Below are positions 22,399-54,427 of a stretch of DNA of 64,000 nucleotides, in pieces; the stretch's first letter is position 1; each line of letters begins with the position of its first letter. Source of the DNA: a virus (Duplodnaviria > Heunggongvirae > Uroviricota > Caudoviricetes); the IMG/VR virus record IMGVR_UViG_2837719392_000001; one strand, 5' to 3'. The translations under genes were made by a program, and so were the position numbers. The notes under the pieces were generated by a model. It made no database searches and had not been told where the DNA came from. It saw only the letters and a list, made by a program, of their open reading frames with translations.

Positions 22399-22471
22399 TG
22401 AACATCTAGCATAATGGAAATGCGTAGGGTTCAGCGCCCTTCATGATACTGGTTCAAGTCCAGTGGTGTTC
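22399..22471 (+). tRNA. tRNA-like gene with atypical anticodon arm (loop TTCAGCG, identity unresolved), no encoded CCA
   Basis: Acceptor GAACATC/GGTGTTC (7 bp incl. G-U), D-arm GCAT/ATGC, T-arm ACTGG-TTCAAGT-CCAGT. Anticodon stem has a mismatch and a 6-nt variable region. Confidence 0.4.
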
Positions 22472-22521
22472 AAATACCAGATTAGAAATAAGGCTAAAAC
22501 AGGGATAATCATATCCCTACA

Positions 22522-22661
22522 TGGTCCTTTAGCTCAGTAGGTAGAGCAGATGACTGTTATACATCACTACATCAAATAAAGACAGTTAAGTACGTGATGT
22601 ATGTCAACACTTTGTGTTGACAAATCATAGCTTGCAGGTTCGAATCCTGTAGGGACCACCA
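22522..22661 (+). tRNA. tRNA-Asn (GTT) gene interrupted by about 67-nt insertion at the 3' side of the anticodon loop (about 22559-22625)
   Basis: 5' half GGTCCTT-TA-GCTC-AGTAGGTA-GAGC-A-GATGA-CTGTTA. 3' half TCATA-GCTT-GCAGG-TTCGAAT-CCTGT-AGGGACC-A-CCA. Near-identical to the intact paralog at 23946. Insert has two perfect hairpins. Confidence 0.6.
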
Positions 22662-22688
22662 AATATACATTTTTTGTGACAAACAATA

Positions 22689-22766
22689 TTGGTGAGTAGC
22701 GTAGTTGGTTAGCGCAATCGGCTGTTAACCGATGGGTCGTGGGTTCAAGTCCCACCTCGCCAGCCA
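22689..22766 (+). tRNA. tRNA-Asn (GTT)
   Basis: U1-A72, loop CTGTTAA, T-arm GTGGG-TTCAAGT-CCCAC, discriminator G, CCA. Confidence 0.8.
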
Positions 22767-22767
22767 T

Positions 22768-22843
22768 GGCCTGTTCGTCTAAAGGTTAGGACACAACCCT
22801 TTCACGGTTGCAATGTTGAGTTCAAGTCTCACACAGGTCGCCA
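22768..22843 (+). tRNA. tRNA-Glu (TTC)
   Basis: Acceptor GGCCTGT/ACAGGTC, loop CTTTCAC, CCA. Confidence 0.8.
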
Positions 22844-22848
22844 AAAAT

Positions 22849-22925
22849 GGACATTTAGCTCAGGTGGTTAGAGCCATCGCCTCATAAGCGATTGGTCGGA
22901 GGTTCAAGTCCTTCAATGTCCACCA
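22849..22925 (+). tRNA. tRNA with CAT anticodon, elongator Met or Ile2 (lysidine) type
   Basis: Acceptor GGACATT/AATGTCC (G1-C72, so not initiator), loop CTCATAA, CCA. Confidence 0.75.
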
Positions 22926-22934
22926 TATAAAGAT

Positions 22935-23009
22935 GGTGAGGTTAGCTTAATGGTAAAGCGCTGGACTGTGGCCCCAGTTATACGAGTTCGATTCTCGTAC
23001 TTCACACCA
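22935..23009 (+). tRNA. tRNA-His (GTG) with encoded G-1
   Basis: G-1 then GTGAGGT acceptor, loop CTGTGGC, T-loop TTCGATT, CCA. Confidence 0.75.
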
Positions 23010-23014
23010 AAAAT

Positions 23015-23091
23015 TGGAAAGTAGCTCAGTTTGGTAGGGCGCACACTTTGGGAGCGTGAGGGCATGGGTTCAAATCCCATCTTTCCAACCA
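23015..23091 (+). tRNA. tRNA-Pro (TGG)
   Basis: Acceptor TGGAAAG/CTTTCCA, classic Pro loop TTTGGGA, one A-C mismatch in anticodon stem, CCA. Confidence 0.7.
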
Positions 23092-23105
23092 TATATTCCA
23101 CATAT

Positions 23106-23181
23106 GCCACCATAGCACAACTGGCAGTGCAACTGACTTGTAATCAGGAGGTTGGAGGTTCGACTCCTTCTGGTGGCACCA
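23106..23181 (+). tRNA. tRNA-Thr (TGT)
   Basis: Acceptor GCCACCA/TGGTGGC, loop CTTGTAA, CCA. Close to B. subtilis tRNA-Thr. Confidence 0.8.
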
Positions 23182-23186
23182 TATTT

Positions 23187-23271
23187 GGGGAAGTATTCCG
23201 TAACAGGTAGCGGGCTTGACTGTAAATCAGGTGTTTAAACTCAGAGTGTTCGAGTCACTCCTTCCCCACCA
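23187..23271 (+). tRNA. tRNA-Tyr (GTA), class II
   Basis: Acceptor GGGGAAG/CTTCCCC, loop CTGTAAA, long variable arm, CCA. Confidence 0.8.
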
Positions 23272-23283
23272 ATAAAATAATCT

Positions 23284-23372
23284 GCCCAAATGGTGAAATC
23301 AGGTAGACACACTGGACTTAAAATCCAGAGGAAGAAAATTCCGTGCCAGTTCGAGTCTGGCTTTGGGTACCA
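23284..23372 (+). tRNA. tRNA-Leu (TAA), class II
   Basis: Acceptor GCCCAAA/TTTGGGT, loop CTTAAAA, long variable arm, CCA. Confidence 0.8.
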
Positions 23373-23378
23373 TATTTT

Positions 23379-23453
23379 GCGGGTGTGATTCAACGGCTAG
23401 AATGTCAGCCTTCCAAGCTGACTACGTGGGTTCGATTCCCATCACCCGCTCCA
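23379..23453 (+). tRNA. tRNA-Gly (TCC)
   Basis: Acceptor GCGGGTG/CACCCGC, loop CTTCCAA, discriminator T, CCA. Confidence 0.8.
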
Positions 23454-23458
23454 TAAAT

Positions 23459-23548
23459 GGAAAGTAAATCCAAGAGGTTTTGGAACACGCCTGCTAAGCG
23501 TTGTGTGGGTATGACACCCATGAGTTTCGATTACTCTGCTTTCCGCCA
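23459..23548 (+). tRNA. tRNA-Ser (GCT), class II
   Basis: Acceptor GGAAAGT/GCTTTCC, loop CTGCTAA, long variable arm, discriminator G, CCA. Confidence 0.75.
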
Positions 23549-23551
23549 TAT

Positions 23552-23682
23552 ACGTCCTTAGCTCAGAGGAAAGAGCACGCGCCTTCTACATTGCAATCTG
23601 TAGATAGCAAGACATTGAAAATCAATCAAGTTGATTTTCATATAAGCGTGATGTCGAAGGTTCGACTCCTTCAGGGCGTACC
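23552..23682 (+). tRNA. tRNA-Arg (TCT) gene interrupted by a 55-nt insertion (about 23590-23644) between anticodon-loop position 38 and the 3' anticodon stem
   Basis: 5' exon ACGTCCT-TA-GCTC-AGAGGAAA-GAGC-A-CGCGC-CTTCTAC. 3' exon GCGTG-ATGTC-GAAGG-TTCGACT-CCTTC-AGGGCGT-A-CCA. All other arms canonical. Insert has hairpins TCTACA/TGTAGA (pairs with anticodon) and GAAAATCAA/TTGATTTTC. Confidence 0.65.
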
Positions 23683-23691
23683 AATTCAATA

Positions 23692-23768
23692 TCGCGGGGT
23701 AGAGCAGTTTGGTAGCTCGTCGGGCTCATTCCCCGAAGGTCGCAAGTTCAAATCTTGCCCCTGCAACC
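23692..23768 (+). tRNA. initiator tRNA-fMet (CAT)
   Basis: C1 x A72 mismatch (CGCGGGG...CCCTGCA-A-CCA). Near-identical body to E. coli tRNA-fMet, but anticodon loop reads CTCATTC (T37 instead of A, unusual). Confidence 0.7.
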
Positions 23769-23771
23769 AAA

Positions 23772-23848
23772 TGGTCTGGTAGTTCAGTTGGTTAGAACGC
23801 CGCCCTGTCACGGCGGAGGTCGCGGGTTCGAGCCCCGTCCAGACCGCC
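23772..23848 (+). tRNA. tRNA-Asp (GTC)
   Basis: Acceptor GGTCTGG/CCAGACC, stem CCGCC/GGCGG, loop CTGTCAC, discriminator G, CCA. Confidence 0.8.
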
Positions 23849-23853
23849 ATAAA

Positions 23854-23941
23854 CGCTTGCGTGTGATAATTGGTAGTCGCGCGGTCTTGAAAACCGTTGA
23901 CGGGAAACCGTTTGAGAGTTCGAGTCTCTCCGCAAGCGCCA
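23854..23941 (+). tRNA. tRNA-Ser (TGA), class II
   Basis: Acceptor GCTTGCG/CGCAAGC, loop CTTGAAA, long variable arm, CCA. Confidence 0.8.
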
Positions 23942-23945
23942 ATAA

Positions 23946-24021
23946 GGTTCCTTAGCTCAGTAGGTAGAGCGGATGACTGTTAATCATTAGGCCGCAGGTT
24001 CAAGTCCTGCAGGGACCGCCA
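23946..24021 (+). tRNA. tRNA-Asn (GTT), intact paralog of the interrupted gene at 22522
   Basis: Acceptor GGTTCCT/AGGGACC, stem GATGA/TCATT, loop CTGTTAA, CCA. Confidence 0.8.
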
Positions 24022-24022
24022 C

Positions 24023-24097
24023 GGCCCGTTCGACAAGTGGTTAAGTCACTACCCTTTCACGGTAGTATCGTGGGTTCAAATCCCGCACGGGTCACCA
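24023..24097 (+). tRNA. tRNA-Glu (TTC), second copy
   Basis: Acceptor GGCCCGT/ACGGGTC, loop CTTTCAC, CCA. Confidence 0.8.
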
Positions 24098-24100
24098 TAT

Positions 24101-24176
24101 GGACATTTAGCTCAGGTGGTAGAGAGGATGATTATTAAAAATCATCAAGTCGGAGGTTCAAATCCTCCAATGTCCA
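24101..24176 (+). tRNA. tRNA-like gene. Paralog of the CAT tRNA at 22849 but with an enlarged anticodon loop (GATGA-TTATTAAAAA-TCATC) and no encoded CCA. Possible pseudogene or unconventional decoder.
   Basis: Acceptor GGACATT/AATGTCC, T-arm GGAGG-TTCAAAT-CCTCC. 10 nt between the 5-bp anticodon stem halves. D-stem has one mismatch. Confidence 0.4.
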
Positions 24177-24186
24177 CTTCTTTCGT

Positions 24187-24262
24187 GGTTTCGTAGCTCA
24201 ATAGGTAGAGCGCTTGGCTGAAGACCAAGGCAGTATTGGTTCAATTCCAGTCGAAACCACCA
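24187..24262 (+). tRNA. tRNA-Phe (GAA)
   Basis: Acceptor GGTTTCG/CGAAACC, stem CTTGG/CCAAG, loop CTGAAGA, CCA. Confidence 0.8.
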
Positions 24263-24267
24263 TAAAT

Positions 24268-24346
24268 GGGGAATGGGAATGCTAGGAGTGTTCACCTGCC
24301 TTGCAAGCAGGAATGCAGATGGGTTCAAATCCCATATTCTCCACCA
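24268..24346 (+). tRNA. tRNA-Ala (TGC)
   Basis: G3-U70 identity pair, stem CCTGC/GCAGG, loop CTTGCAA, slightly long variable region, CCA. Confidence 0.7.
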
Positions 24347-24353
24347 AAAATCT

Positions 24354-24429
24354 AGGAGCGTAGCACAAAGGTGAATGCACACGACCGATAATCGTGCGAC
24401 TGCAAGTTCGAGTCTTGCCGTTCCTACCA
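24354..24429 (+). tRNA. tRNA-Ile (GAT) with C at position 33
   Basis: Acceptor AGGAGCG/CGTTCCT, stem CACGA/TCGTG, loop CCGATAA, CCA. Confidence 0.65.
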
Positions 24430-24432
24430 TAT

Positions 24433-24504
24433 CATCTGTAGCTTATATGGTAAAGCCACAGCCGTTAGTGCTGGGGAAGTTTGGTTCGACTCCAGACCAG
24501 ATGC
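24433..24504 (+). tRNA. tRNA-like gene with aberrant anticodon loop (CGTTAGT, G at position 33, possible TTA/TAG-type anticodon). No CCA.
   Basis: Acceptor CATCTGT/CCAGATG (6 bp), D-arm GCTT/AAGC, T-arm TTTGG-TTCGACT-CCAGA. Anticodon stem has only 4 bp. Confidence 0.35.
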
Positions 24505-24918
24505 CGGAGTTAAGGATTCTCTGAGAAAAATCTATATTGGAAAGGACCACGGTGAGGAATTGTACGCGAAAGCCATGCAACACTATTCCAAATCCGAAAG
24601 CATCTAGCTAATGCCTTGTTGGTCTGAGTTTCAAGTGCGAGGTTGGGGCAGCTTGAACAAGAAATCGTATGGGAATAAAAAATCTGACGACAGCCGGATT
24701 GACAATATATTTCCGTCCTGTATAGGTAAAAGTGGTTTGATGTGAACCGTCAAAAGAAAAAACATCGCTGTCAAATACCGAACAAAGGAGAAGAGTAGGT
24801 AAAAGACAAACCAGAATCCTTGAGGCTATTAACCTCTATTTGAATATCATTGAATAAGTTAATGGTCGACAGTCCATTGGGTAACTCCATAGGAGCACTG
24901 TTAGGTCTTTTCTTTTAT
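24505..24918 (+). ncRNA. candidate structured non-coding RNA (about 410 nt) between tRNA genes. Identity unknown.
   Basis: No plausible ORF on either strand. GC content clearly above flanking DNA. Many short complementary segments. Lies inside the tRNA transcription unit. Confidence 0.3.
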
Positions 24919-24995
24919 AGCAGAATGGCGAAAATGGTAGACGCACAGGACTTTGACTCCTGCATTTGGAGGTTCGAACCCTTCTTCTGCTGCCA
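24919..24995 (+). tRNA. tRNA-Gln (TTG)
   Basis: Acceptor AGCAGAA/TTCTGCT, stem CAGGA/TCCTG, loop CTTTGAC, discriminator G, CCA. Confidence 0.8.
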
Positions 24996-25017
24996 AAATA
25001 CTCAAATGGGGTGATAG

Positions 25018-25604
25018 ATTTGTCAACTTATTATGATTATTATGTTTTTATTAAAAAGGATAATGAGTTTAAGTATGCTGGATACTATGATATTTCTGGC
25101 AAACCCCTTCCCATATATTATCATACCCGTAGCTTCTCATACGGTTTCTTAGATTATGGACAATATGTCGATGACCCAGATAAATATGGTATCCATTTAC
25201 CAAACGAAGGTGATGAGGAAGATGAAGCCAGATTCGGTTACGTTTTCCAATTACCAGATATAGAAGCCATTCCAGACAGAAGCCATAAAGAAGCCTATAT
25301 ATATAAAACACTGAAAAGAGATATGGAAATTAATCATTTCGAATATGACATAGAAGAATATTTGGAAAATGATGAAGAATCTGTCGATGGACATTCACTT
25401 GTTATTTGCAAGAGTGAATTTGATAGACTATCCATAGAAGAACAAAAGAAATACTTTTATTATAAGTGGATTGATTATGAAGATATGTCCTACCATAGAA
25501 ATATTCTATGCACCATCATCAATAACTGGATAAATATAAGACAATTCAAAGAATTTAAAGATATAGATAAAAAGGACATATATGTCATTGCCTTTGGAGG
25601 ATAG
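25018..25604 (+). CDS. hypothetical acidic protein (D/E/Y-rich)
   Basis: ORF 24966..25604, trimmed so it does not overlap tRNA-Gln. Probable TTG/GTG start after a GGGGTGA RBS. Start uncertain. Confidence 0.35.
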
Positions 25605-25617
25605 GGAGGTGATGTAA

Positions 25618-26340
25618 GTGCAATGTAAAATTTATAGACGCACTTGGTCGTTGAAAAGAAAGTATCAACAAGAAGCTTTATTTTTTGACATTGATTCCTT
25701 CTTTCTTCCATATTATAAAAGATGCCATTTAAAAGCGTACAATCGTCCCCAATTTTGGTGGGCAACAGAATGGAATCTTATCTGTGATGAATTCAATCCT
25801 GAAGAATATAAAGATATTGAGTGGTTTCGAAAGAATGTTGCGGGACGCTTTGTGTCTCCTAAAGCGCTTAAATATATTCCATTTGCCAAATCAGATGATG
25901 ATTTCCCTGTACATGAAATAGATGAAATAGAAGTGGTACAATATAAGGTTGTTGATGAATATGGATATCCTATAAGTATGGATGTCTATATTAGTGATTA
26001 TATTGAAGAAAATATCAAAAGATACAAGAACTCATATAGTTTAAACAATCATCATTGTTATCCATCTCTACGCTACTACTGGCGACATCCTCAAACGACA
26101 AATGAAAAAAGACAACAGTTATCTAAAGAAGAAAAAAGATATTATCAAGAAAATGGATGGCATATGAAAGAGCGTTCTAAAAGAAATGCAAGAAATCTGC
26201 CAGATTTATTCGATGATAAATTCATTCATGTTGACAAATGCTGGAAATCTCAGACTCGTCAGCCTCGACAATATTTGAGAAACAAAAGAGCCAAAAGAAA
26301 AAGAATTCATGGAGAGGAATACAGGAATTTTATGGGGTGA
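25618..26340 (+). CDS. hypothetical basic protein
   Basis: GTG start after GGAGGTGA RBS. 240 aa, K/R/Y/W-rich. Confidence 0.4.
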   Translation: MQCKIYRRTWSLKRKYQQEALFFDIDSFFLPYYKRCHLKAYNRPQFWWATEWNLICDEFNPEEYKDIEWFRKNVAGRFVSPKALKYIPFAKSDDDFPVHEIDEIEVVQYKVVDEYGYPISMDVYISDYIEENIKRYKNSYSLNNHHCYPSLRYYWRHPQTTNEKRQQLSKEEKRYYQENGWHMKERSKRNARNLPDLFDDKFIHVDKCWKSQTRQPRQYLRNKRAKRKRIHGEEYRNFMG

Positions 26341-26349
26341 TAAGTAAAC

Positions 26350-26643
26350 TTGTCGTACACTCAAAAACGTCATACAAAAAGCCATATTCGACATGAATTA
26401 TATACTCATATAAAAAGAAAAGAAAAAATATTAAAGAATGTTTACGATGCAGGCTATGGATACTGTAAAAACAATGAAAAACTTGGCTCTTATTATGGAT
26501 ACACGAAAGGACAACCGCATCGTCTTTCAAAAGAAAAGATTCATTGCTCTTGTCCAATGTGTAGAGAAAAGACGAGAGAAAGAGGCTGGAAACACAGTGA
26601 TTTAGTTAATATGATGAAAGGAATTGAAGATGAGAGAGAATAG
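26350..26643 (+). CDS. small basic Cys-containing protein, paralog of 28623..28880
   Basis: MSYTQKRHTK... with ...IHCSCPMCREKT. Shares the MSYxxKRH N-terminus and K-x-HKSCP motif with the ORF at 28623. Confidence 0.45.
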   Translation: MSYTQKRHTKSHIRHELYTHIKRKEKILKNVYDAGYGYCKNNEKLGSYYGYTKGQPHRLSKEKIHCSCPMCREKTRERGWKHSDLVNMMKGIEDERE

Positions 26644-26808
26644 CCAATGTGAATGATGGATAATTCTAGAAAAAATCCGTCAAGACTCTACTCCTATTGA
26701 GGATGGGAAAAACTCAAGCTGAAAGATGCACCAATAACCAAGTATAAGAGGAAGGCTATCAATAGAATGTCATGCTACAGACAGAGGATGTTCATTTGTA
26801 ATAAATAA

Positions 26809-26883
26809 CCGTCTGTAGTCTAATGGATAGGACACGGAGCTACGGACTCCGGGGTGGTGGTTCGATTCCATTCAGGCGGGCCA
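26809..26883 (+). tRNA. tRNA-Arg (ACG)
   Basis: Acceptor CCGTCTG/CAGGCGG, stem CGGAG/CTCCG, loop CTACGGA, discriminator G, CCA. Confidence 0.8.
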
Positions 26884-26896
26884 GTGAGGTAGAAAG

Positions 26897-27508
26897 ATGA
26901 TTAGAGAATTTGTTTATCAAAGGCTTAACTTTCTGATAAATAATGTACAGGTAGAACATTCATCTTTTCTTAATCAATATGCAAAAGATTTTATAAAAGG
27001 AATACAAGAGAAATGTGATGTTAACATGTCGCATGTGTTTATCGAGAATTTTCCTATAATTGTAGCCATACATGATATAGGAAAGAAACATATTCCAGAT
27101 TATATTTTAGAAAAAAAAACTCAGTTGACGGATGATGAATATGAATGTGTACAACGTCATTGCATTTTAGGATATGAAGACTTGCAAGAAGCTTTCAACA
27201 ACATACCTCTGAATGAAGAAGAAAAGGAGTTGATTAAATTATGCAAGGAATCATGTTTATATCATCACGAAAGACTTGATGGGAGCGGATATCCTTATGG
27301 TTATAAACAAATCCCTCTTATCGCTCAGATGGTAGGAATTCTTGATAGTTTTGATGCTATGACTGTAAACAGATGCTATAAGAAAGCCATGAGCAAAGAA
27401 GAAGCTATCAAAAATCTTATTCAATCAGACAAATATAATGAGGAATTTCTTTATGTATTATCGGAGGTGATAGAAGATGAAAATGAAACTAGAAATTCAG
27501 ACAAATGA
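26897..27508 (+). CDS. HD-GYP/HD-domain phosphohydrolase
   Basis: HDIGK...HHERLDGSGYPYGY motif. 203 aa. Confidence 0.65.
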   Translation: MIREFVYQRLNFLINNVQVEHSSFLNQYAKDFIKGIQEKCDVNMSHVFIENFPIIVAIHDIGKKHIPDYILEKKTQLTDDEYECVQRHCILGYEDLQEAFNNIPLNEEEKELIKLCKESCLYHHERLDGSGYPYGYKQIPLIAQMVGILDSFDAMTVNRCYKKAMSKEEAIKNLIQSDKYNEEFLYVLSEVIEDENETRNSDK

Positions 27509-27683
27509 ATTGAATGTAACTTATGAAGAATTAGTCAATCATGTTAAAGACTCTTTAAAAATGAAGAATGTCCCTTTAACAAAAGTGAAAGATGTAAAAG
27601 CATATTATGTTCCTAACACAAAAGTTTTGTATTACACAGCCATGTATAATGGTGAAGAAATCAAAGGAGAAAAATACTTGTAG
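27477..27683 (+). CDS. hypothetical small protein
   Basis: 68-aa ORF overlapping the HD gene's 3' end. Confidence 0.3.
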   Translation: MKMKLEIQTNELNVTYEELVNHVKDSLKMKNVPLTKVKDVKAYYVPNTKVLYYTAMYNGEEIKGEKYL

Positions 27684-28129
27684 TTTTATACTTACAGTTT
27701 TCTCTTTATGCCAGCATTGTGATGAAACCTCCTCGTGGTTGCTGGTGGGTCGCGCTAATATCATCACAAGAAACAGACATATGGCTGAAAATCCTTTCAA
27801 CGGGATAAGGCACACTTGCTTCATGGTGGGTGGAATTCCCATTATAGAAACTCGATTGAGATATAACATAAAGTGGTTCCAAGATGAACAATGCCGTTTG
27901 TAAATTGGCTGTGCGGACAAGGCTTTCCTATCCGGGTAACAAGGAAAGGGAAATCCTTCTGGTGATGCAAATGTCGAGGCACAGGCTCCATGGTAGAAAA
28001 ATCCAGAGAAGAAAAACATATGGTGATATATTCTGTAGTTGATGCCATGGTTGGAGGTCACAGAGTCCTTCTTTTATGCAATGAAAGCAAACGAGGAGCA
28101 GCTTGTTGAGGTATGTACGTCTGTTTTAT
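27684..28129 (+). ncRNA. candidate structured non-coding RNA (about 440 nt) upstream of tRNA-Gln(CTG). Identity unknown.
   Basis: Only Cys/His-rich nonsense ORFs on both strands. GC-rich relative to flanks. Adjacent to tRNA. Confidence 0.3.
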
Positions 28130-28204
28130 ATCGGGATAGCATAATGGTAATGCGCATGGCTCTGAACCATGTCAGTGGAGGTTCGAATCCTTCTCCCGAT
28201 GCCA
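28130..28204 (+). tRNA. tRNA-Gln (CTG)
   Basis: Acceptor ATCGGGA/TCCCGAT, stem CATGG/CCATG, loop CTCTGAA, discriminator G, CCA. Confidence 0.8.
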
Positions 28205-28282
28205 AAAAAATTTCAAAATTAGCAATTCATGATAAAATGATAGTGGTAATCCTAATATCAGGAGCCACTATAATAGAAGATG

Positions 28283-28446
28283 GTAGCAGGGAACTATCAT
28301 CTTCACTATTACATTAAAAAAAAGGAGAAAGATGATAGAAAACCACTATCATCTTAACTACTCTATTATAAAAGAGATGATAGAAGGTCACTATCATCTT
28401 CACTATACTATGACATTATTGATGATAGAAAACCAGTATCATCTTC
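28283..28446. repeat. tandem hairpin repeats: three 45-bp units (28331, 28376, 28421) each containing GATGATAGAAAACCACTATCATCTT (stem GATGATAG/CTATCATC), plus a degenerate copy at about 28283
   Basis: Direct inspection shows a 45-nt period. Repeat about 25 nt, inter-repeat 20 nt. Confidence 0.6.
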
Positions 28447-28450
28447 AAAT

Positions 28451-28525
28451 ATCTCCATAGTTTAGTTGGTAGAACGTCGGTCTCCAAAACCGAAAGCAGA
28501 TGTTCGAGTCGTCTTGGAGGTGCCA
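28451..28525 (+). tRNA. tRNA-Trp (CCA)
   Basis: Acceptor ATCTCCA/TGGAGGT, stem TCGGT/ACCGA, loop CTCCAAA, discriminator G, CCA. Confidence 0.8.
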
Positions 28526-28526
28526 T

Positions 28527-28600
28527 GGTTTCTTGGCAGATTGGTTATGCGCAGGACTGCAACTCCTGTCAAGCTGGTTCGATTCCAGCAGAAATCTCCA
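28527..28600 (+). tRNA. tRNA-Cys (GCA)
   Basis: Acceptor GGTTTCT/AGAAATC, stem CAGGA/TCCTG, loop CTGCAAC, U73 discriminator (Cys identity), CCA. Confidence 0.8.
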
Positions 28601-45196: not shown

Positions 45197-47014
45197 ATGG
45201 CAAAAACATTAAAAAAACCAAAGTATGATGCATTAACATTTGCATATTCAAAAAAAGAAGCAGGGAAAATGATTCCTAATACAACTTTTACAGCAGGAGG
45301 AGAAGATGAAAGATTCTATAGTATTAAAAACAAGACAATCTTGCCATCTACTGGAAAAGTAGCATCTATATTATCTGATAAGATTGCAAAAGCAATTTTA
45401 GAATCTCAGTTAACAAATGATGAAACGATGATAGGATGGGGTAAAAATGGAACTGAGCAATTTATTTATGGAGAATTGCCTGGTGGTTCTGCAAGTGATA
45501 TAGAAAAATTCATTATTAACTTAGATGAAAAGAAAATCTATGCAACGAATATCTATTCACATCTTTTATATAAAGTTATCCTAGCATATGACTTATTGCA
45601 ATTTGTCTTAGCTGGTGAAAAAGCAACAGATGAACAAAGAGAGGCTTATGAGATTTTAGCAGGTATTAACTATTTACCTACTGAACCTTTTGATGAAACA
45701 TCTATTTTAGTAGATTCGGCTGAAAAAGAAAGTTTTGTCACTTTATGTGATAGTATTTTACAAACAGCATCAATGTTTAATGGTTATGAGTTTGATACTG
45801 AAATACCTAATAAAGATAAGGACTTTGATATCTATGCTAATAAGATTAAATATAATCTTTTGCCATTAGTTGCTATGCATAATAAGGTTGATGATATGTC
45901 TATTGATACTGGAGAAGAAGATGAAGATGGAAATCCTATCTATATTCCGGAAATCAAACCTCTCAAAGTCAAAAGAAAGAAAAAAGGAGCGAAATCTAAA
46001 GCAAACTCATCTATTCCGTATAAAGATAGAGATTATACGTTAATGACTGATGAAGAAGCTGAAGATTTACCTGAAGAATTAAAGATTCAAAGAGATGCAT
46101 GTATTGAACTTTATGAAAGAAATAAAGAGTTTATGGATGATAATGATGAGCTTTGGGAATGTATCTTAAGCTTCTATCATGGAAACATCTGGAAAATGGG
46201 ATTCTTTGGACCATCTGCTTCTGGGAAAACAACGTTTGTCAGAATGATGGCAGGAGCATTAAAATTACCTTTCGCACTGGTAACAGGTAATAGAGATACA
46301 GAAACAGCACAGTTGTTTGGACATATGACAATCAAAGATGGAGATATGGTCTTCGTTGATGGCCCATTGACTCAAATTGCGAGATACGGTGGTATCTTCT
46401 TATTTGATGAAAGAAATATGGTCAACGCTGGTGTCGTGTCAGCGACAAACAACTTGCTTGATGATACTCGTATGTGTACAATTCCTCAAACTGGAGAAAC
46501 TATCAGAGCTCATAAAAACTTCAGATATTGTGAAGCTTTCAATATTGGATATGAAGGGACAAAAGAAGACAACTTGTCACATATTTCACGTATTGATGAA
46601 TTCCATAAATTGGCACATACAGATGAAACAGAAGCTAAAATCGTCGTTGCGAATTCTGGAATTGAATTAGGAGTAGCCAAAACGATGATTCAAGTCAAAA
46701 ACAATATCACAAAAGAAATCATAGAAGACGGGGATGAAACTACTCAAAGAGTAGATTTACGTTCTTGTATTTCATGGGCTAAAAAGACAATGGATTTGGA
46801 AGGTAATGCATTAAGAGCAGCACTTTCTACAATCTTAACACCTCTATCAAAAGAAGTTGATACAGTTTTAAGCAGTAATAATATCAAGAACTTCTCTGCT
46901 ACAGGGGACCCTGTCGTAGATTATGCTTCTAATGAGATTAGAAAATATTTCGATGAAAGTGTTAAAAAGAAAGTCATCAAGAAAGAATATGAATTTGAAA
47001 AATATGAACTTTAA
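45197..47014 (+). CDS. MoxR/CbbQ-like AAA+ ATPase (AAA_5) with about 300-aa N-terminal extension
   Basis: Walker A FFGPSASGKTTFV, Walker B IFLFDE, sensor residues. Confidence 0.65.
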   Translation: MAKTLKKPKYDALTFAYSKKEAGKMIPNTTFTAGGEDERFYSIKNKTILPSTGKVASILSDKIAKAILESQLTNDETMIGWGKNGTEQFIYGELPGGSASDIEKFIINLDEKKIYATNIYSHLLYKVILAYDLLQFVLAGEKATDEQREAYEILAGINYLPTEPFDETSILVDSAEKESFVTLCDSILQTASMFNGYEFDTEIPNKDKDFDIYANKIKYNLLPLVAMHNKVDDMSIDTGEEDEDGNPIYIPEIKPLKVKRKKKGAKSKANSSIPYKDRDYTLMTDEEAEDLPEELKIQRDACIELYERNKEFMDDNDELWECILSFYHGNIWKMGFFGPSASGKTTFVRMMAGALKLPFALVTGNRDTETAQLFGHMTIKDGDMVFVDGPLTQIARYGGIFLFDERNMVNAGVVSATNNLLDDTRMCTIPQTGETIRAHKNFRYCEAFNIGYEGTKEDNLSHISRIDEFHKLAHTDETEAKIVVANSGIELGVAKTMIQVKNNITKEIIEDGDETTQRVDLRSCISWAKKTMDLEGNALRAALSTILTPLSKEVDTVLSSNNIKNFSATGDPVVDYASNEIRKYFDESVKKKVIKKEYEFEKYEL

Positions 47015-47024
47015 GAATTGAAAA

Positions 47025-47052
47025 GGCTGGTATTTCAGCCTTTTTATTTTAA
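47025..47052 (+). terminator. rho-independent terminator
   Basis: AAGGCTG-n7-CAGCCTT + TTTATTTT. Confidence 0.5.
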
Positions 47053-47066
47053 GGAAGGAGTAAATT

Positions 47067-49334
47067 ATGAAAAGAAAAACAGGAAAATTAATGAAAAAGA
47101 AGGTTAAGAAGATTTTAACTGGCATTGAGTTGCTTACAAGTAAAGGTTATAGAGCCAGCTATAAAAGTATGGCTGAAACTTATTGTAAACAGCCTCTTCA
47201 ATTTAAAATGCTTTTAAATGCAGGAAGTTTTACAAGTGTTAATGATAAAGGTCAGACATTGATGAATATTGACTTGAATATGTTTAGAGATGATAAGTTT
47301 TCAACATCTCACTATCATCTGTTTGCTAAAGGCGTGATTTTACATGAATCCGGTCATGTTTTATATAGTGATTTTGATGTGATTAGAAAAAACGCAGATA
47401 ATGTGAATCAGTTAAGAAATCAAATCAAGGCAATCGGAGAGGCATACTATCAAGAATCTGACCCTATTCTCAAACAGGACTGTGAAACAAAATTGTATGA
47501 TGCCATTTTAGAATTTACTAAGGCAAGTAATCTACCAGATGTCCTAAACTCTTTTGAAGATGCTGCAGTAGAGAGAGTCATGTCAGAAATGGGTAAAGAT
47601 GAAAATGGAAGCATTGCTTTTACAAGAAATTATATTGTAGAAAAAGATACACAACATAAATTAGATGGCATCAATAACGATGCGATTCCATTGGATTCAG
47701 ACAACTGGAATCAAGCCACTTTGGATGGAATTATCACTGAAGCCAGATTAATGGCTACAGCAGGATATAGAATGGCTATTGATATGACTATCATATCGCA
47801 TACTTTTGAGCCTGCAGAAATCAATCAGATTAAGGATATCTGTCAATATGTGAGATTTATGTCCAATACAACAGAAGATAGAAATATTTCCAGTGAAGTC
47901 TTCTTGGATATGTGTCAACCAATTATCGAGAAGATAGCGCAAGACTTAACAAACGCTTATATCAGAGATATTGATTATGCTGAAGACCAGTTGAACAACA
48001 TGCAACAAAACGCAAATGCATCTACTCAATCAACAGGTGGTCCAGGAAGCCAGCCAACTCAAGCAGGAGGAAATGGATTGCCTGGGCAAAAAGGAGGAAG
48101 TCAACCTCAGCCTACATCAAATAAGAATAGTTTACCTCTGCCTGATAGCCTAAAGAAACAATTACAAAACAAAGCCAATCAAACAGGGCAGCTATTAAGT
48201 GTTGGTGGACAGGGTTCAAACCAAGGAGACGCTTCACATGATGGACAGGGAGCAGATGGCGCAGGCACAGGAAATGAAAATAATAATGCTACATCAGGAG
48301 GAGGTTCAGGTGATGGGCCAAATGGAACATCAATCCCTAATGCGACAAAAACAAGTGAAGAGTTAAGTGATGAAAGTGTTACTGATATGACAGAGGCATT
48401 AAATAATGCAAAAAAGACTTTTCAGCGAAATGAAGATATGGTTCAAGATTCATTAATTAAAAGCGACCATAATATCAGAGCAGCCGAAGGACGCTGTCAT
48501 AAAGGTATTGGAATCAGCATAACAGACATCAATGATGTTTTGGATTTATCAGATTCTCGTGAAGGAAAAGAAGCCCAAAAAACAATTCAAAAAGATAATT
48601 TGAACATCTATGTTAATGAATTATCTAAAAAAATTAAAAAAGTTCTTATGAGAAAAGGCATGGATGATACATCAAGAGGACGTTATGAAGGAGATATTGA
48701 TTTCTCAAATCTTCATAGAATCAAAACAGACTGCCAGTTATTTAAAAAGGATATCGAAGGTAAGACAAACAAAATAAGATTTGCTATTCTTGTAGACGAA
48801 TCTGGAAGCATGTATGGTACAGAACTGTATAATGCCATATTAGGATGTTGGATGATTGCAAAAGCTGCACAAAAACTCAAAATCCCATTTGCTGTTTATG
48901 GCCATGATGAAGATGATGAGTTTGAACTCAGAAAGTACATCTCATATGAAAAATGTAAGAAAAATACAGCATTGAACTCATTATTTAAAATGAGTTCTAG
49001 AGGATGCAACAGAGATGGCCTGGCAATTTTCCATGTTTGTAGAGAATTAATTAAACATGCACAAGATGACGAGGATTTGTATTTTATCATCTTGAGTGAT
49101 GGACAACCAAATGGACACAATTATGGTGGACAACCGGCAATCGATGACATGAGAGAAGTTATCAATACTTTCAAAAAGCATTACAACGTCCATTCAATTG
49201 GAATTGGGATTGGAGATTTTAATTTTGAAAATATTGGCGTCATCTATGATAATCATGTCTGCGTAAAAGACGTGAAAGAATTGCCTAATGAGATGTTCAA
49301 GATTTTTAAACAGATTTTAAAAGTAGAAAGATAG
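47067..49334 (+). CDS. von Willebrand factor A (VWA) domain protein, CobT-like partner of the AAA+ ATPase
   Basis: C-terminal MIDAS motif ILVDESGSM. Central G/Q/S/P-rich low-complexity linker. Confidence 0.65.
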   Translation: MKRKTGKLMKKKVKKILTGIELLTSKGYRASYKSMAETYCKQPLQFKMLLNAGSFTSVNDKGQTLMNIDLNMFRDDKFSTSHYHLFAKGVILHESGHVLYSDFDVIRKNADNVNQLRNQIKAIGEAYYQESDPILKQDCETKLYDAILEFTKASNLPDVLNSFEDAAVERVMSEMGKDENGSIAFTRNYIVEKDTQHKLDGINNDAIPLDSDNWNQATLDGIITEARLMATAGYRMAIDMTIISHTFEPAEINQIKDICQYVRFMSNTTEDRNISSEVFLDMCQPIIEKIAQDLTNAYIRDIDYAEDQLNNMQQNANASTQSTGGPGSQPTQAGGNGLPGQKGGSQPQPTSNKNSLPLPDSLKKQLQNKANQTGQLLSVGGQGSNQGDASHDGQGADGAGTGNENNNATSGGGSGDGPNGTSIPNATKTSEELSDESVTDMTEALNNAKKTFQRNEDMVQDSLIKSDHNIRAAEGRCHKGIGISITDINDVLDLSDSREGKEAQKTIQKDNLNIYVNELSKKIKKVLMRKGMDDTSRGRYEGDIDFSNLHRIKTDCQLFKKDIEGKTNKIRFAILVDESGSMYGTELYNAILGCWMIAKAAQKLKIPFAVYGHDEDDEFELRKYISYEKCKKNTALNSLFKMSSRGCNRDGLAIFHVCRELIKHAQDDEDLYFIILSDGQPNGHNYGGQPAIDDMREVINTFKKHYNVHSIGIGIGDFNFENIGVIYDNHVCVKDVKELPNEMFKIFKQILKVER

Positions 49335-50001: not shown

Positions 50002-50158
50002 TTGCATGAAAAAGGAGGGTGGGAAGATAACGAATATGAATATTTTAAACTCTAGCAAAGCGTTCCACCCACTTTTTCATTTCTATATTGATATAATTTA
50101 GGAATAGGAATATAATTATATTAGATATAGATAACAAACGATAGAAAGGAGAATAATT

Positions 50159-50278
50159 ATGAATGGAAAACGTGTATTAAAATCTGTAAAGAAAAGAGTT
50201 TCAATTGCTGAGAAAAATTCCAAAATTTCTAGAAATATGCAGTATACAAATGGAGCATGGAATGATTCTCATAGATAG
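50159..50278 (+). CDS. candidate RiPP precursor peptide (39 aa): MNGKRVLKSVKKRVSIAEKNSKISRNMQYTNGAWNDSHR
   Basis: AAAGGAG RBS 7 nt upstream. Followed by hairpin + T-run, then modification-enzyme genes. Not in the ORF track (<60 aa). Confidence 0.45.
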   Translation: MNGKRVLKSVKKRVSIAEKNSKISRNMQYTNGAWNDSHR

Positions 50279-50286
50279 AATTTAAA

Positions 50287-50320
50287 GAGCTGTAACGATT
50301 ATTACGTTACAGCCTCTTTT
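50287..50320 (+). terminator. hairpin + T-run (attenuator/terminator) between precursor and enzyme genes
   Basis: GAGCTGTAACG-ATTATTA-CGTTACAGCCTC + TTTT. Confidence 0.55.
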
Positions 50321-50327
50321 CACATAT

Positions 50328-51050
50328 ATGAATTATATTTTTTTATTACCATTTGCTTTTGGTGGAAATCCTGCATGTGAATCAGGCCCTAGAGCTGCAT
50401 ATAATATAATAAAGGATAACTTCTCTACTCAGAAATACTCTGTTTTTATTATTGAACAAAAAATCAATGAAAGTCCGGAAAATTATTTATTAAAAGTAGA
50501 AGATATTATTGATAAAGAGGTTATAGATAATTCAAAATGTTGTGTAATTGGTGGAAATCATCTTTCTATATTACCTGTTTATAAACATATAATTAAATCT
50601 AACTTGTTATCTAATTTTTTAATATTAGATGCTCATCGAGATTTTTATCCTCAAAACGATTTATCCCATTCTACTTTTTTAAAATACATATCTCATGATA
50701 ATAATTTTTTGTTGGTGGGTTGTAGAGATAAAAATAGACATCATTCATTTATTAGAAATACAAAAGTGATTTTTAAAGAAGATTATAAAGAGTTATTACA
50801 AATAGATATGAATAAAATAAATATGATAGATATAGATTTAGATGTAATAGATGAAAGTGAATTTGCCAGTTATTCAGATTATATCCCAAATGGGCTTTCG
50901 CTAAATCAAATTCGTGAAATAATTTCATTATCTAAAAACAGGGAGGCACAGTTTTTATCAATTTCAGAATATAATCCTATTTTTGATTATGGACAAAAGG
51001 ATTTACTAAAAATAATTGATTTAATTAATCTATTTTTTGATGATTATTAA
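50328..51050 (+). CDS. arginase/agmatinase-family (ureohydrolase) enzyme, short form. Candidate peptide arginase.
   Basis: Ureohydrolase motifs GGNHLS, LDAHRD, DIDLDVIDES. N-terminal GGNPACESGPRAAY resembles the arginase N-terminal loop. Confidence 0.55.
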   Translation: MNYIFLLPFAFGGNPACESGPRAAYNIIKDNFSTQKYSVFIIEQKINESPENYLLKVEDIIDKEVIDNSKCCVIGGNHLSILPVYKHIIKSNLLSNFLILDAHRDFYPQNDLSHSTFLKYISHDNNFLLVGCRDKNRHHSFIRNTKVIFKEDYKELLQIDMNKINMIDIDLDVIDESEFASYSDYIPNGLSLNQIREIISLSKNREAQFLSISEYNPIFDYGQKDLLKIIDLINLFFDDY

Positions 51051-51069
51051 TAATAGGAGGTAAAATGAT

Positions 51070-52140
51070 ATGTTAATGCAGAGTTTTATCATACCCATAA
51101 TTAAAGTAACTGATTCATGTAACTTTAATTGTGAATTTTGTTATTATTCACAAAAAAAATTACATTCAGAATTAATGACACTCGAATTATGTAAGAAAAT
51201 AATAAAAGAAACATTTGAATATAATGCTAAGATGGGAAATAAAAGAATGAGAATAATTTTTCATGGTGGAGAGCCTTTACTTCAACCCATAACCTTTTAT
51301 AAAGAGTTATATAATTTTGAAAATGAGTTAAAACATAACTATCAAATGGATATTTTACATTCAATTCAAACGAATGGTTACAATATTAATAATCAATGGA
51401 TTGAATTATTTCAAATAATGAATATGGATGTTGGAATTAGTATTGATGGCCCTGATTTTCTTAATTTCCATTATAATGAATTAGGTCAGAAAAAGTGCAC
51501 TGATAAAGTTTTAGAGAATATACAATTATTAAATCAGAATAACATCTCTTATGGAATAATTAGTGTAATTACAAATTCTCATCTTAATTATGCAAAAGAA
51601 ATGTATGATTTCTGTATTAAAAATGATATACATAATCTAAGTCTTAATTATTGTTATAATGATGACTCAGATGATAGTGTTGATACGAAAGAATTAGTTT
51701 TTTTCCTAAAAGAACTTTTTGATTTATATTTTAATGGTGATTATGAGTTAAATATTAGAGAATTTAATGAGTCTATTGCAAAAATACTAGGGTATTGTAG
51801 TGATACATGTGCAACATGTAGTAGGGAAAATTGTGGGCAGTATATGTCTTTTGATTCCTATGGAAATGTATTCTTTTGTGATAATGCATATGATAAAAAT
51901 AATGCAATTGGAAATTTATATAATTCTTCATTATATGATATTATTGACTCCTCAAGATATTTAACAGAAATAATTAAATCAAGACGAAATTATGAAGAAA
52001 ACTGTAAAAATTGCTCACTATCTTTTGTGTGTGGAAGTGGATGTTATAGATATGATAACAACCTTGGAGTTAATTATTTTTGTCCAACCATGAAAGCGAT
52101 TAACAATTATATTATAAATAAAATAAATAATAATGATTAA
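51070..52140 (+). CDS. radical SAM enzyme with C-terminal SPASM domain (peptide-modifying maturase type)
   Basis: CNFNCEFC (CxxxCxxC). C-terminal Cys cluster CATCSRENCGQ...FFCDN...CKNCSLSFVCGSGCY. Confidence 0.7.
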   Translation: MLMQSFIIPIIKVTDSCNFNCEFCYYSQKKLHSELMTLELCKKIIKETFEYNAKMGNKRMRIIFHGGEPLLQPITFYKELYNFENELKHNYQMDILHSIQTNGYNINNQWIELFQIMNMDVGISIDGPDFLNFHYNELGQKKCTDKVLENIQLLNQNNISYGIISVITNSHLNYAKEMYDFCIKNDIHNLSLNYCYNDDSDDSVDTKELVFFLKELFDLYFNGDYELNIREFNESIAKILGYCSDTCATCSRENCGQYMSFDSYGNVFFCDNAYDKNNAIGNLYNSSLYDIIDSSRYLTEIIKSRRNYEENCKNCSLSFVCGSGCYRYDNNLGVNYFCPTMKAINNYIINKINNND

Positions 52141-52167
52141 AAAAAGTTGAAAAAAAATCAACTTTTT

Positions 52168-52638
52168 TTAATGAGTAATTACTAACAGTATCATTAGAAA
52201 TATAATATATCCAATCAACATCATCAAAGCCAGAGGAATCATAATGCTCTGTTTTTCTTTTAAGCTTCCACCATGATTCTTTCTTTTTTGCATAAATTTA
52301 TATAAGCAATAGAACCATGAAACAACAAATGTGATAAGAAAGAGTAGGAGGCTGTTTTCCATACCTAATAGAGAACCTACTGCTAACATCAGTTTGGCAT
52401 CTCCGCCTCCTATTTGGTGGAGTTTAAAAAGGATGAAACATATAATAAATAATGGAATCAACCATATCTGATTTTTCAATCCTTCCAACCATCCATATAA
52501 AAACATGCTATTGATAATACCTATAGGAATAAATGGTAATGTCATATAATTGGGTATGATTCGTTTCCTTGCATCGCTGTAGGCTGTTAATACCAGTAAG
52601 ATAAAAGTCAATATAATATCTAAATAAAGCATATACAC
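52168..52638 (-). CDS. A24-family prepilin/leader peptidase-like membrane protease
   Basis: DARKRIIPN and IGGGDAKLM motifs. Multiple TM helices. Confidence 0.6.
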   Translation of the reverse strand: MYMLYLDIILTFILLVLTAYSDARKRIIPNYMTLPFIPIGIINSMFLYGWLEGLKNQIWLIPLFIICFILFKLHQIGGGDAKLMLAVGSLLGMENSLLLFLITFVVSWFYCLYKFMQKRKNHGGSLKEKQSIMIPLALMMLIGYIIFLMILLVITH

Positions 52639-52657: not shown

Positions 52658-54298
52658 TTAGGCAGCCTCTTTTACATTTATATATAATTTTTCGATATCC
52701 TGTGCTAATAAGGTTTCTTTTTCTAGAAGACTTTTAGCAATGGTATCTAAAAGTGATTGATTTTCCTTGATAATATGAGTTGCTTCTTCATGGCATTGTT
52801 TTAAAAGGGTATTCACTTCCTCATCAAGTTTCTTTTGAGTTTCTTGAGAGGCTTGGTTATCAACTTTCATCAATCCCATTTTCCCCATCCCAAAAGAGCC
52901 AACATATCTTCTGGCAAGATTCGTAGCTTTTTCAATGTCATTGGATGCACCAGCCGTTATATCATCGAAGAAAAGTTCCTCTGCGACACGACCTGATAAT
53001 AACCCAACGATTTCATCATGAATAGAGCCTTTTGTAGGGAAAAATGTTTCTTCTTTTGGCATCATGAGGTTGTATCCTCCAGCTTCTCCACGAGGAATGA
53101 TTGTGACTTTTTCTACCTTCTTTGCATTTTCCAGGACAAGACCAGCAACGGCATGACCTGCTTCATGATAAGCGACAATTTTTCTTTCTTTATCAGTATA
53201 CTGATGTGTTGTTTTTGATGGTCCCATCAAGACTCTATCCACAGCTTCATCAATAAGGGAATCATTGATAGCATTTTGATGGAATCTGACAGCTAAAAGT
53301 GCCGCTTCATTCATAAGTGCAGCTAATTCAGCATTAGAAAATCCCTGTGTTTTCTTAGCAATACTTTCAAAATTCAAATTATCAATCTTTTTATTCTTTG
53401 CGTGCAACTTAAGGACATCAATGCGTTCTTCATATGTTGGTAAACCGACATAAATTTGTCTATCGAATCGTCCAGGACGAAGCAATGCAGAATCTAACAT
53501 ATCCTTACGATTTGTGGCAGCAATGACAATGTAGTTATTATCTTTGGTAAATCCATCCATCTCAACCAATAACTGATTAAGCGTATGTTCACTTTCTTTG
53601 TTATAACCGTTACTGCTTCTTTTTCCTCCCATTGCATCAATCTCATCAATGAAGATAATGCATGGTTCCTTGCTTTCTCTTGCAGAGTCAAATAGCTTTC
53701 TCACTCTTTCAGCTCCAACTCCAACAAACTTTTCAACGAATTCAGAACCTGAAGTATATAAAAACTTCACACCTGCTTCACCAGCTACAGCTCTGGCAAG
53801 TAATGTTTTCCCTGTGCCTGGAGGGCCTTCAAATAGGATTCCATGAGGAATTGTTGCTCCCATACTATGATATTTTGAGGGCTGCTTTAAAAAGTCGATG
53901 ATTTCGTATAATTCATCCTTTACTTCTTTAAATCCGGCGATGTCGTTTAAAGTGATATCGCTATGAGAAGGAGTAAATTCATTGCCAACATTTTTTTCAG
54001 TCATCTTTTCATTAATCATATCTTTAATTTTATTACTGTCAGCAGAAGAATTGACTGCTGTTTTCTTAGTTTCCTGTAAATAAGCAGTTGCAATCAGTTT
54101 GGCTTTATCCTTATATTCATTTCTTTCAATCTCAATAGTCTTCATTTTATAATAATATAAGCCTATGATGACAAAACTGGCAATGCCAATTAATGTCATC
54201 ATAATAAAACCAATCATAGAAATAGATGTAAAAAAATATATAAATAACAGTGCTAGAATATAAATGACACCGTAAATTTTAATGTATGTGTTTTTCAT
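52658..54298 (-). CDS. FtsH-like AAA+ zinc metalloprotease (short form)
   Basis: N-terminal TM, Walker [19 protein letters not shown] zinc motif. Start trimmed to the Met with AAGAGG RBS. Confidence 0.75.
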
Positions 54299-54427
54299 AT
54301 CATAACCTCTTTTCCCTGCTAATAGCATTTGTCTTTAGCTTTTTCACAAGTCTATTTTACCATAAATCCTAAAAAATATCAAGAAAAATTTAGGGAAATA
54401 ACAAAAAAGAGAATTTTTCATTCTCTT

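Follow-up and report, generated by a model that had tools for sequence, protein, structure and literature searches.

A mobile three-gene cassette that probably encodes a triceptide-like radical-SAM peptide with arginase tailoring

Ornithine is rare in ribosomal peptides, and the enzymes known to introduce it number only a handful. Among the peptides that are made by ribosomes and modified after translation (RiPPs), the enteropeptins pair a PF00491-type arginase, KgrD, with the radical S-adenosylmethionine (radical-SAM) enzyme KgrC, the arginase acting after the radical-SAM step (PMC12703449, which we also follow in assigning peptide arginases to the OspR-type or the KgrD family), and the biphenomycins pair the TPR-arginase PbsE with the B12-radical-SAM enzyme PbsB (PMC12257519); in both pathways the arginase follows a radical-SAM or oxidative step. 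The precursors of another group of radical-SAM RiPPs, the triceptides, are defined by aromatic-X2-X3 motifs (PMC11499958). Here we describe a cassette of three genes, encoding a 39-residue peptide, a minimal arginase-like enzyme and a radical-SAM/SPASM enzyme, in a 64,000-nt stretch of DNA from IMG/VR record IMGVR_UViG_2837719392_000001, a virus record filed under Caudoviricetes (we refer to this whole stretch as the window). The original prediction, made by a model from the sequence alone, had read the locus as a RiPP cassette and had seen an unusual RiPP class in the pairing of an arginase with a radical-SAM/SPASM enzyme. Our comparisons support the cassette, whose parts are given below, but the pairing itself is not new, because KgrD/KgrC and PbsE/PbsB precede it.

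50088-50116, plus strand: promoter-like TTGATA-17-TATAAT, 5' of the peptide gene (11/12 consensus matches)
50144-50151, plus strand: Shine-Dalgarno sequence GAAAGGAG, 7 nt 5' of the peptide ATG (read from the sequence)
50159-50278, plus strand: precursor peptide gene, 39 residues, MNGKRVLKSVKKRVSIAEKNSKISRNMQYTNGAWNDSHR (open reading frame read from the sequence, and homologous peptides)
50289-50320, plus strand: stem-loop and T-run between the peptide and arginase genes (folding energy against shuffles)
50328-51050, plus strand: gene for a minimal arginase/ureohydrolase-fold protein, 240 residues (PF00491, E = 2e-13, 50.9 bits against a cut-off of 22)
51070-52140, plus strand: radical-SAM/SPASM maturase gene, 356 residues (Radical_SAM and SPASM matches)
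52138-52170, unstranded: AT-rich hairpin where the radical-SAM and A24-peptidase genes converge (-11 kcal/mol, z = -5.2)

We compared the DNA around relatives of either enzyme. Every locus with a family-level arginase (L001-L006, L059-L074 and L078) also contained a small open reading frame (ORF) ending in W-x-D-S-H-R (13 independent homologous loci from metagenomes), and a family-level radical-SAM gene was found at all arginase-bearing loci except L072 and L062, the latter a 1-kb contig fragment. The gene-pair co-occurrence that the original prediction had proposed as a check is thereby borne out, with the radical-SAM gene beside the arginase and the peptide everywhere but at these two loci. 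At L072 (552-2228), an IS66-family transposase occupies the place where the radical-SAM gene would be expected, upstream of an intact peptide and arginase pair. Linkage is kept through five arrangements of the three genes:

Peptide, arginase, radical-SAM: the window, L001, L059 and L074
Radical-SAM, peptide, arginase: L004, L061, L063, L068 and L073
Radical-SAM, arginase, peptide: L066
Arginase, radical-SAM, peptide: L070
Arginase, radical-SAM, and some 700 bp from them, on the other strand, the peptide: L064

The neighbourhoods in which these arrangements lie are unrelated, and contain conjugation genes (L001), a relaxase and ParAB (L064), integrases (L070), ToxN (L066), histidine kinases and a serpin (L063) or ordinary chromosomal genes (L004). 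No fourth conserved gene was found among the loci compared, and no methyltransferase, MNIO or hydroxylase gene accompanied the cassette in them. The motif W-x-D-S-H-R occurs a single time in the six-frame translation of the window, yet it recurs beside arginase homologues at every related locus, and beside the radical-SAM gene wherever that gene is present; the arrangement is therefore more than chance. We are highly confident that the three genes form one peptide-modification unit.

On comparative sequence evidence, the small ORF at 50159-50278 is a genuine conserved gene. The original prediction had made its case depend on the conservation of this ORF, and we found 13 distinct homologous peptides, all of them beside homologues of the cassette enzymes. 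Within the Y-T-N-G-A-W-N-D-S-H-R core there are many codon differences between loci, all synonymous, and the peptide ORF is therefore translated and under purifying selection. N-terminally, all 13 peptides carry N-(G/A)-x-x-V-(L/I); C-terminally they carry an invariant W-x-D-S-H-R, after which comes either no residue or one variable follower (N, G, K, R or E). In the window peptide, the N-terminal leader carries the motif NGKRVL and the core reads ...NMQ-YTN-GA-WND-SHR, so that W34-x-D36-S37-H38-R39 forms the C-terminus. The cores are built from tandem aromatic-x-(Asp/Asn/Glu)-(Gly/Ser) units: one clade has YTNG and WNDS, and a second has either WHES-WPDG-WRDS (with the triplets WHE, WPD and WRD; L064 and L070) or WHES-WGDD-WTDS (WHE, WGD and WTD; L074). 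The serine of the tail, Ser37 in the window, is invariant (13/13 peptides). No cysteine is present in the window peptide or in most of the 13 homologues, and the cysteines of the L064 and L066 peptides are not adjacent to the C-terminal arginine. There are four arginines in the window peptide (R5, R13, R25 and R39), two of them in the C-terminal half, for which three had been claimed; the sole arginine conserved in all peptides is the C-terminal one, R39 in the window.

Putative expression signals surround this ORF. Strong ribosome binding had been claimed for it, and GAAAGGAG is indeed positioned 7 nt before its ATG, as AGGAG or GGAGG boxes are positioned 5' of the peptide start in 6/6 loci compared. 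From a consensus match alone, in an AT-rich region that is not enriched in such sites, we infer that TTGATA-17-TATAAT is the promoter of the peptide gene. The terminator-like hairpin said to follow the peptide gene was likewise recovered, as a stem-loop at 50289-50313 with a stem of 9-10 bp, followed by CTCTTTT, and with a folding energy of -16.3 kcal/mol (z = -7.5 against shuffles). A stable hairpin occurs directly 3' of the peptide gene in every homologous locus checked and is followed by a T-run in most; its sequence varies between loci, and it is present in any gene order, whatever gene comes next. Terminator-like elements 3' of the precursor gene are the classic route by which RiPP operons obtain an excess of precursor over enzymes, and the stem-loop at 50289-50320 would presumably act as a partial terminator, fixing the ratio of peptide to enzyme transcripts. 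At the other end, the hairpin at 52138-52170 is probably a bidirectional terminator closing the cassette, which went unflagged in a consensus terminator scan because it has too few G-C pairs.

The arginase-like protein carries all three metal-binding motifs attributed to it in the original prediction (GGNH, DAHRD and DIDLD), in addition to its PF00491 profile match. In an alignment of 26 homologues, the metal ligands H78, D101, H103, D105, D168 and D170 are invariant, as are H114 and E214, whose positions align with those of the ureohydrolase catalytic His and Glu. An AlphaFold2 (AF2) model of the protein (mean predicted local distance difference test, pLDDT, 90.9) matches agmatinases and arginases with a template-modelling (TM) score of about 0.8 at 13-20% identity, and the closest solved sequence is 3lhl, a putative agmatinase. 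The equivalog models score 6 to 13 times under their cut-offs (agmatinase, 30 bits against 174.3; arginase, 17.7 against 227.6; the formimidoylglutamase HutG, 22.1 against 229.15). PF00491 is the only match at E <= 0.01, with none to PF12640, the OspR-type peptide arginase family, and none among the PHROGs.

Relatives of this arginase are very few: a word-indexed search of 5.8 billion proteins returned 27, and when 1.84 billion cluster representatives were searched exhaustively with a profile, only 31 matched at E <= 1e-30, after which the scores drop clearly. Among species-representative genomes (185,579 species) no close relative was present, the only matches being planctomycete proteins at about 26% identity, which we treated as an outgroup. 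These have no radical-SAM partner nearby, and the linkage of arginase and radical-SAM genes is therefore specific to the family to which the window's arginase belongs. In one locus (L074, 1129-2784) and in proteins P0137, P0140 and P0149, the arginase is fused to an N-terminal HD domain (about 310 residues), and the accompanying peptides have the form WHESWGDDWTDSHRE; the fusion suggests an extra tailoring activity in the variants that have it. By its invariant residues and its model, the arginase-like enzyme is catalytically intact, and we presume it to be a peptidyl-arginine hydrolase acting on R39, which is the obvious target because it is the only arginine invariant in all peptides. Conversion of the C-terminal arginine to ornithine is, in our judgement, likely.

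The radical-SAM protein shows the CxxxCxxC motif and the C-terminal SPASM cysteines that had been noted earlier, in the forms CNFNCEFC, CX9GX4C and CX2CX5CX3C, and it matches the Radical_SAM and SPASM profiles. C17, C21 and C24, together with the SPASM/auxiliary cysteines, are invariant or nearly so across 38 homologues, making up three clusters. No RiPP recognition element (RRE) domain was found at the N-terminus. The AF2 model (pLDDT 92.9) has as its best match in the Protein Data Bank (PDB) the anaerobic sulfatase maturase (anSME) anSMEcpe (TM 0.84, 24% identity), followed by the triceptide synthase ChlB (TM 0.82); when the family profile was run against solved proteins, anSMEcpe scored 201 bits (E = 2.6e-58) and ChlB 129 bits, and SkfB was a weak match. 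Among the NCBIfam models, the top match was TIGR03942, for anSME (187.5 bits against a cut-off of 349.45), and PRK13758 scored 131.1 against 441. The models for DynA (162 against 450), GrrM/OscB (142.9 against 310), AmcB (127.7 against 425), YhhB (119.7 against 445) and XyeB (73.5 against 450) matched at E = 1e-20 to 1e-47, and DarW/DarE were also among the matches, well under cut-off.

About 63 relatives of the enzyme were found at 36% identity or more; the next matches, at 31% or less, include annotated sulfatase maturases. In a tblastn search of sequenced plasmids all matches were at 28% identity or less, and consisted of anSMEs and one annotated GrrM/OscB, which was the best of them. Judged by these profile and model comparisons, the enzyme sits between the anaerobic sulfatase maturases and the three-residue cyclophane synthases, both of which abstract a C-beta hydrogen of a peptide residue. 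Among the PADLOC defence models, it gave generic radical-SAM-core matches to viperins only, and the arginase gave none; a defence-system reading was dropped.

Taken as a whole, we consider it likely that the locus is a three-gene RiPP cassette whose product carries cyclophane cross-links and an ornithine in place of Arg39. The peptide gene would be strongly transcribed and translated, with the hairpin probably passing only part of the transcripts on to the enzyme genes. The radical-SAM/SPASM enzyme would bind the leader, probably through the conserved N-terminal N-G-x-x-V-L, and abstract a C-beta hydrogen in the core. Three-residue cyclophanes may then be formed at Y29-T30-N31 and W34-N35-D36, as the repeat pattern and the relatives of the enzyme suggest. 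The binuclear-metal arginase, whose catalytic site is intact, would subsequently hydrolyse the guanidino group of R39 to give ornithine and urea, probably after the radical-SAM step, as KgrD and PbsE act in their own pathways. The cassette encodes neither leader removal nor export, both of which must therefore come from unlinked functions. The assignment of the radical-SAM step to cyclophane formation is made because aromatic-X2-X3 repeats fit the definition of a triceptide precursor, which the window core satisfies with YTN and WND, and because of the set of relatives that the enzyme has; for this step alone, by sequence and by analogy, we lean only modestly towards the cyclophane.

Several observations weigh against this account. 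The family profile of the radical-SAM enzyme is closer to anSME than to ChlB, and the enzyme falls under the cut-off of every named cyclophane-synthase model. Its invariant C270-D271 aligns with the C-D of 'YPCDFY' in the active-site region of anSMEcpe, the Asp of which is the proposed catalytic base. Asp or Glu as the cross-linked third residue of a characterised triceptide was not confirmed in the literature searched, and the chemistry of the product is wholly inferred. The arginase gene of the window has no obvious Shine-Dalgarno sequence. Finally, in the loci compared the cassette has no conserved protease, exporter or immunity gene beside it, an unusual situation for a secreted bioactive peptide.

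The main alternative takes the likeness to anSME at face value: there would still be one cassette, but the radical-SAM enzyme would oxidise the invariant Ser37 of D-S-H-R to formylglycine, and the ornithine derived from R39 might react with the aldehyde (to give, for example, a cyclic imine) or stay free. The profile, fold and NCBIfam rankings, all headed by anSME, the aligned C270-D271 and the presence of Ser37 in 13/13 peptides fit such a scheme. The peptide, however, does not contain the sulfatase motif (C/S)-x-(P/A)-x-R, the anSME score is about half of the cut-off (187 against 349 bits), and the scheme leaves unexplained both the two to three aromatic-x-(D/N/E) repeats and the invariant W and D. 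Similarity to anSME is in any case non-discriminating, because the cyclophane synthases are themselves close relatives of anSME, and we regard formylglycine formation as unlikely. A different role for the peptide would be that of a sacrificial scaffold, from which modified C-terminal residues are cut off to serve intracellularly as a small molecule or cofactor, as for pyrroloquinoline quinone (PQQ) and mycofactocin; MftA/MftC and PqqA/PqqE are analogous pairs of a scaffold-type peptide and a radical-SAM enzyme. The combination of a radical-SAM/SPASM enzyme and a small peptide with no conserved transporter or immunity gene resembles these pairs, the scaffold role would account for the missing exporter and immunity genes, and the conserved motif does lie at the extreme C-terminus, with its optional variable follower. 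Cofactor pathways, on the other hand, need several further genes, and no peptidase or other tailoring gene is conserved here; conservation also extends to the upstream aromatic-x-(D/N/E) repeats, which makes the core longer than a C-terminal stub. The cassette is also patchy, rare, and carried on plasmids, conjugative elements and integrase-flanked islands, a pattern more in keeping with an accessory trait, competitive or signalling, than with a cofactor, and we hold the scaffold role to be improbable.

An enteropeptin-like sactipeptide or thioether system, in which a Cys sulfur would be joined to the alpha-carbon of an Arg by the radical-SAM enzyme before the arginase trimmed that Arg, has the same gene content in its favour (small peptide, radical-SAM/SPASM enzyme and PF00491 arginase, as in KgrA/C/D), as well as the targeting of an Arg of the C-terminal region by the enteropeptin arginase (PMC12703449). 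It is already contradicted by the Cys-free cores of most of the 13 peptides, including that of the window, and by the position of the L064 and L066 cysteines away from Arg. In addition, no Fe-S methyltransferase gene was found beside the cassette in the neighbourhoods compared, and KgrC was grouped with AlbA and SkfB (PMC10288494), whereas the nearest solved proteins here are anSME and ChlB; the thioether is thus very improbable. Least credible is that a housekeeping arginine or agmatine hydrolase and a sulfatase maturase have come to lie side by side by coincidence, with the small ORF being spurious or a regulatory leader peptide. For this it can be said that the weak best matches of the two enzymes are an agmatinase and an anSME, and that 3lhl is the closest solved sequence. 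A free-arginine or agmatine hydrolase in a polyamine operon was also the outcome that the original prediction had set against itself, and we observed no such context: neither polyamine or arginine-metabolism genes nor a sulfatase domain was found in the neighbourhoods compared (nor a sulfatase domain in the ORFs flanking the cassette in the window), the equivalog scores are far under their cut-offs, and the linkage is family-specific, as the planctomycete outgroup indicates. A cis-acting leader peptide is ruled out because the peptide stays linked where it lies downstream of the enzymes and where it lies on the other strand. By these sequence comparisons the coincidence is already contradicted.

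Returning to the cassette as a single modification unit, a more far-reaching possibility is that the anSME-like radical-SAM enzyme and the minimal arginase turn W-x-D-S-H-R into a structure new to RiPPs, and hence define a new class. The ornithine side chain might, for example, be cross-linked or cyclised, either to an oxidised Ser37 or as an ornithine lactam whose formation expels the variable last residue; alternatively, a Trp-Asp cyclophane might be combined with a C-terminal ornithine. Such a class would have spread as a three-gene cargo on plasmids, conjugative elements and the tRNA-rich giant mobile element of anaerobic gut-type Firmicutes. We put this forward tentatively, as a possibility that is doubtful but worth naming.

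Facing the cassette in the window are three protease genes, to which the original prediction had drawn attention:

Minus strand: Peptidase_A24, an AAA+M41 (FtsH-like) protease (52658-54328) and Peptidase_S26

All three are present by profile match, but they are not part of the conserved cassette: they accompany it only in the near-identical element L006 and are absent at all other loci. They are backbone genes of the mobile element. They were considered as leader peptidases and rejected on account of this limited co-occurrence. The FtsH-like protease scored 139 bits against the PADLOC model for IetA, which probably reflects shared AAA+ similarity and not a defence system. Elsewhere, two loci have additional genes next to the cassette. 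At L061 (545-1606), a second radical-SAM gene (353 residues, of another family) is located directly upstream of the cassette radical-SAM gene. At the chromosomal L063 (1-7816), two large hybrid histidine kinase genes precede the cassette and share its strand, the second overlapping the start of the radical-SAM gene, and a serpin gene lies behind the cassette; this context may be regulatory or protease-related.

The window also encodes RepA_N, ParA/ParB, RecD2, RecJ, topoisomerase III and a DnaE-type polymerase. No phage structural protein was recognized among the window ORFs tested against PHROGs, neither near-identical DNA nor a relative was found in sequenced plasmids and phages, the RepA_N protein had no tblastn match among sequenced plasmids, and a viral contig collection contained no relative. 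These results make the window a large mobile or extrachromosomal element that looks plasmid-like or phage-like. The GC content of the cassette is 24-26%, as compared with 31-37% in its flanks, which is consistent with acquired cargo, and the loci compared place the cassette at plasmid-like, conjugative and chromosomal sites of anaerobic Firmicutes-type genomes, between which it moves.

Other features of the element lie further from the cassette. An array of 27 tRNA genes (22273-28597, plus strand) is typical of very large phages or megaplasmids. The gene for the DnaE-type DNA polymerase III alpha subunit (58065-63994, minus strand) is in three pieces (62636-63994, 60590-61393 and 58065-59522), separated by two endonuclease ORFs, one of the HNH/NUMOD type (61547-62275) and one of the GIY-YIG type (59622-60425). 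The gene seems to have received two insertions, of introns or homing endonucleases; at the gathering threshold, Rfam reported neither a group I nor a group II intron. Upstream of the cassette (45197-49334, plus strand) is a gene for an AAA_5 (MoxR/dynein-like) ATPase of 605 residues and, after it, one for a protein of 755 residues whose C-terminus is CobT-like VWA and whose long middle is of low complexity and rich in Gly, Gln and Ser. Such a pair also occurs in phages, where it is annotated as 'porphyrin biosynthesis' or as AAA-ATPase.

The cassette offers a candidate peptide arginase of the PF00491 type that is very small (240 residues) and whose target site is clear and invariant, and its two enzymes and 39-residue peptide make a compact, directly testable system, from which new macrocycle chemistry and compact peptide-engineering tools could come. 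As a minimal mobile unit with neither export nor immunity genes, it also raises the question of how the peptide benefits the plasmids and conjugative elements that carry it. The peptide family, the minimal arginase and the radical-SAM clade are all undescribed in the literature searched (in full text), in which we found no description of a W-x-D-S-H-R family and no triceptide with an arginase partner, and both enzyme families are very rare, at about 30 clusters among 1.84 billion representatives.

Set beside the described systems, the cassette shares with the enteropeptin (KGR) locus of Enterococcus cecorum, which comprises the peptide KgrA, the radical-SAM enzyme KgrC, the arginase KgrD and the methyltransferase KgrB, the combination of a small precursor, a radical-SAM/SPASM maturase and a PF00491-type, Mn-dependent arginase, and also, as proposed here, the conversion of an Arg near the C-terminus to ornithine. 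It differs from that locus in that the window core has no Cys and can thus form no thioether or thiomorpholine ring, in that there is no Fe-S methyltransferase gene, and in that its radical-SAM enzyme belongs to the neighbourhood of anSME and the cyclophane synthases rather than to that of AlbA, SkfB and KgrC. The precursor family is W-x-D-S-H-R as opposed to KGR. With anSME (anSMEcpe, PDB 4K36-4K39), the radical-SAM enzyme has in common its best profile and fold match and the same three-cluster architecture; unlike anSME, it reaches about half of the TIGR03942 cut-off, has no sulfatase gene or C/S-x-P/A-x-R motif alongside, and is accompanied by a dedicated small-peptide substrate and an arginase partner. 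The proposed formation of ornithine in a RiPP core is shared with the OspR-type arginases (PF12640; landornamide, FlmR and OhkR) and with PbsE of biphenomycin, from which the window's arginase differs by its match to PF00491 and not to PF12640 and by its minimal size of 240 residues, with no TPR or other extension. The triceptide systems (XyeB, GrrM/OscB, YhhB, HaaB, HtkB and ChlB, with the related DynA/DarE) likewise employ a radical-SAM/SPASM enzyme of about 360 residues that lacks an RRE, act on precursors with tandem aromatic-X-X units, and supply, in ChlB, the second-best structural match. In the window's family, by contrast, Asp, Asn or Glu would take the third position, triceptides have no counterpart of the invariant S-H-R tail, and there is an arginase partner, none having been reported for any triceptide in the literature searched. 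By this comparison, the cassette is probably a triceptide-like radical-SAM RiPP system with arginase tailoring.

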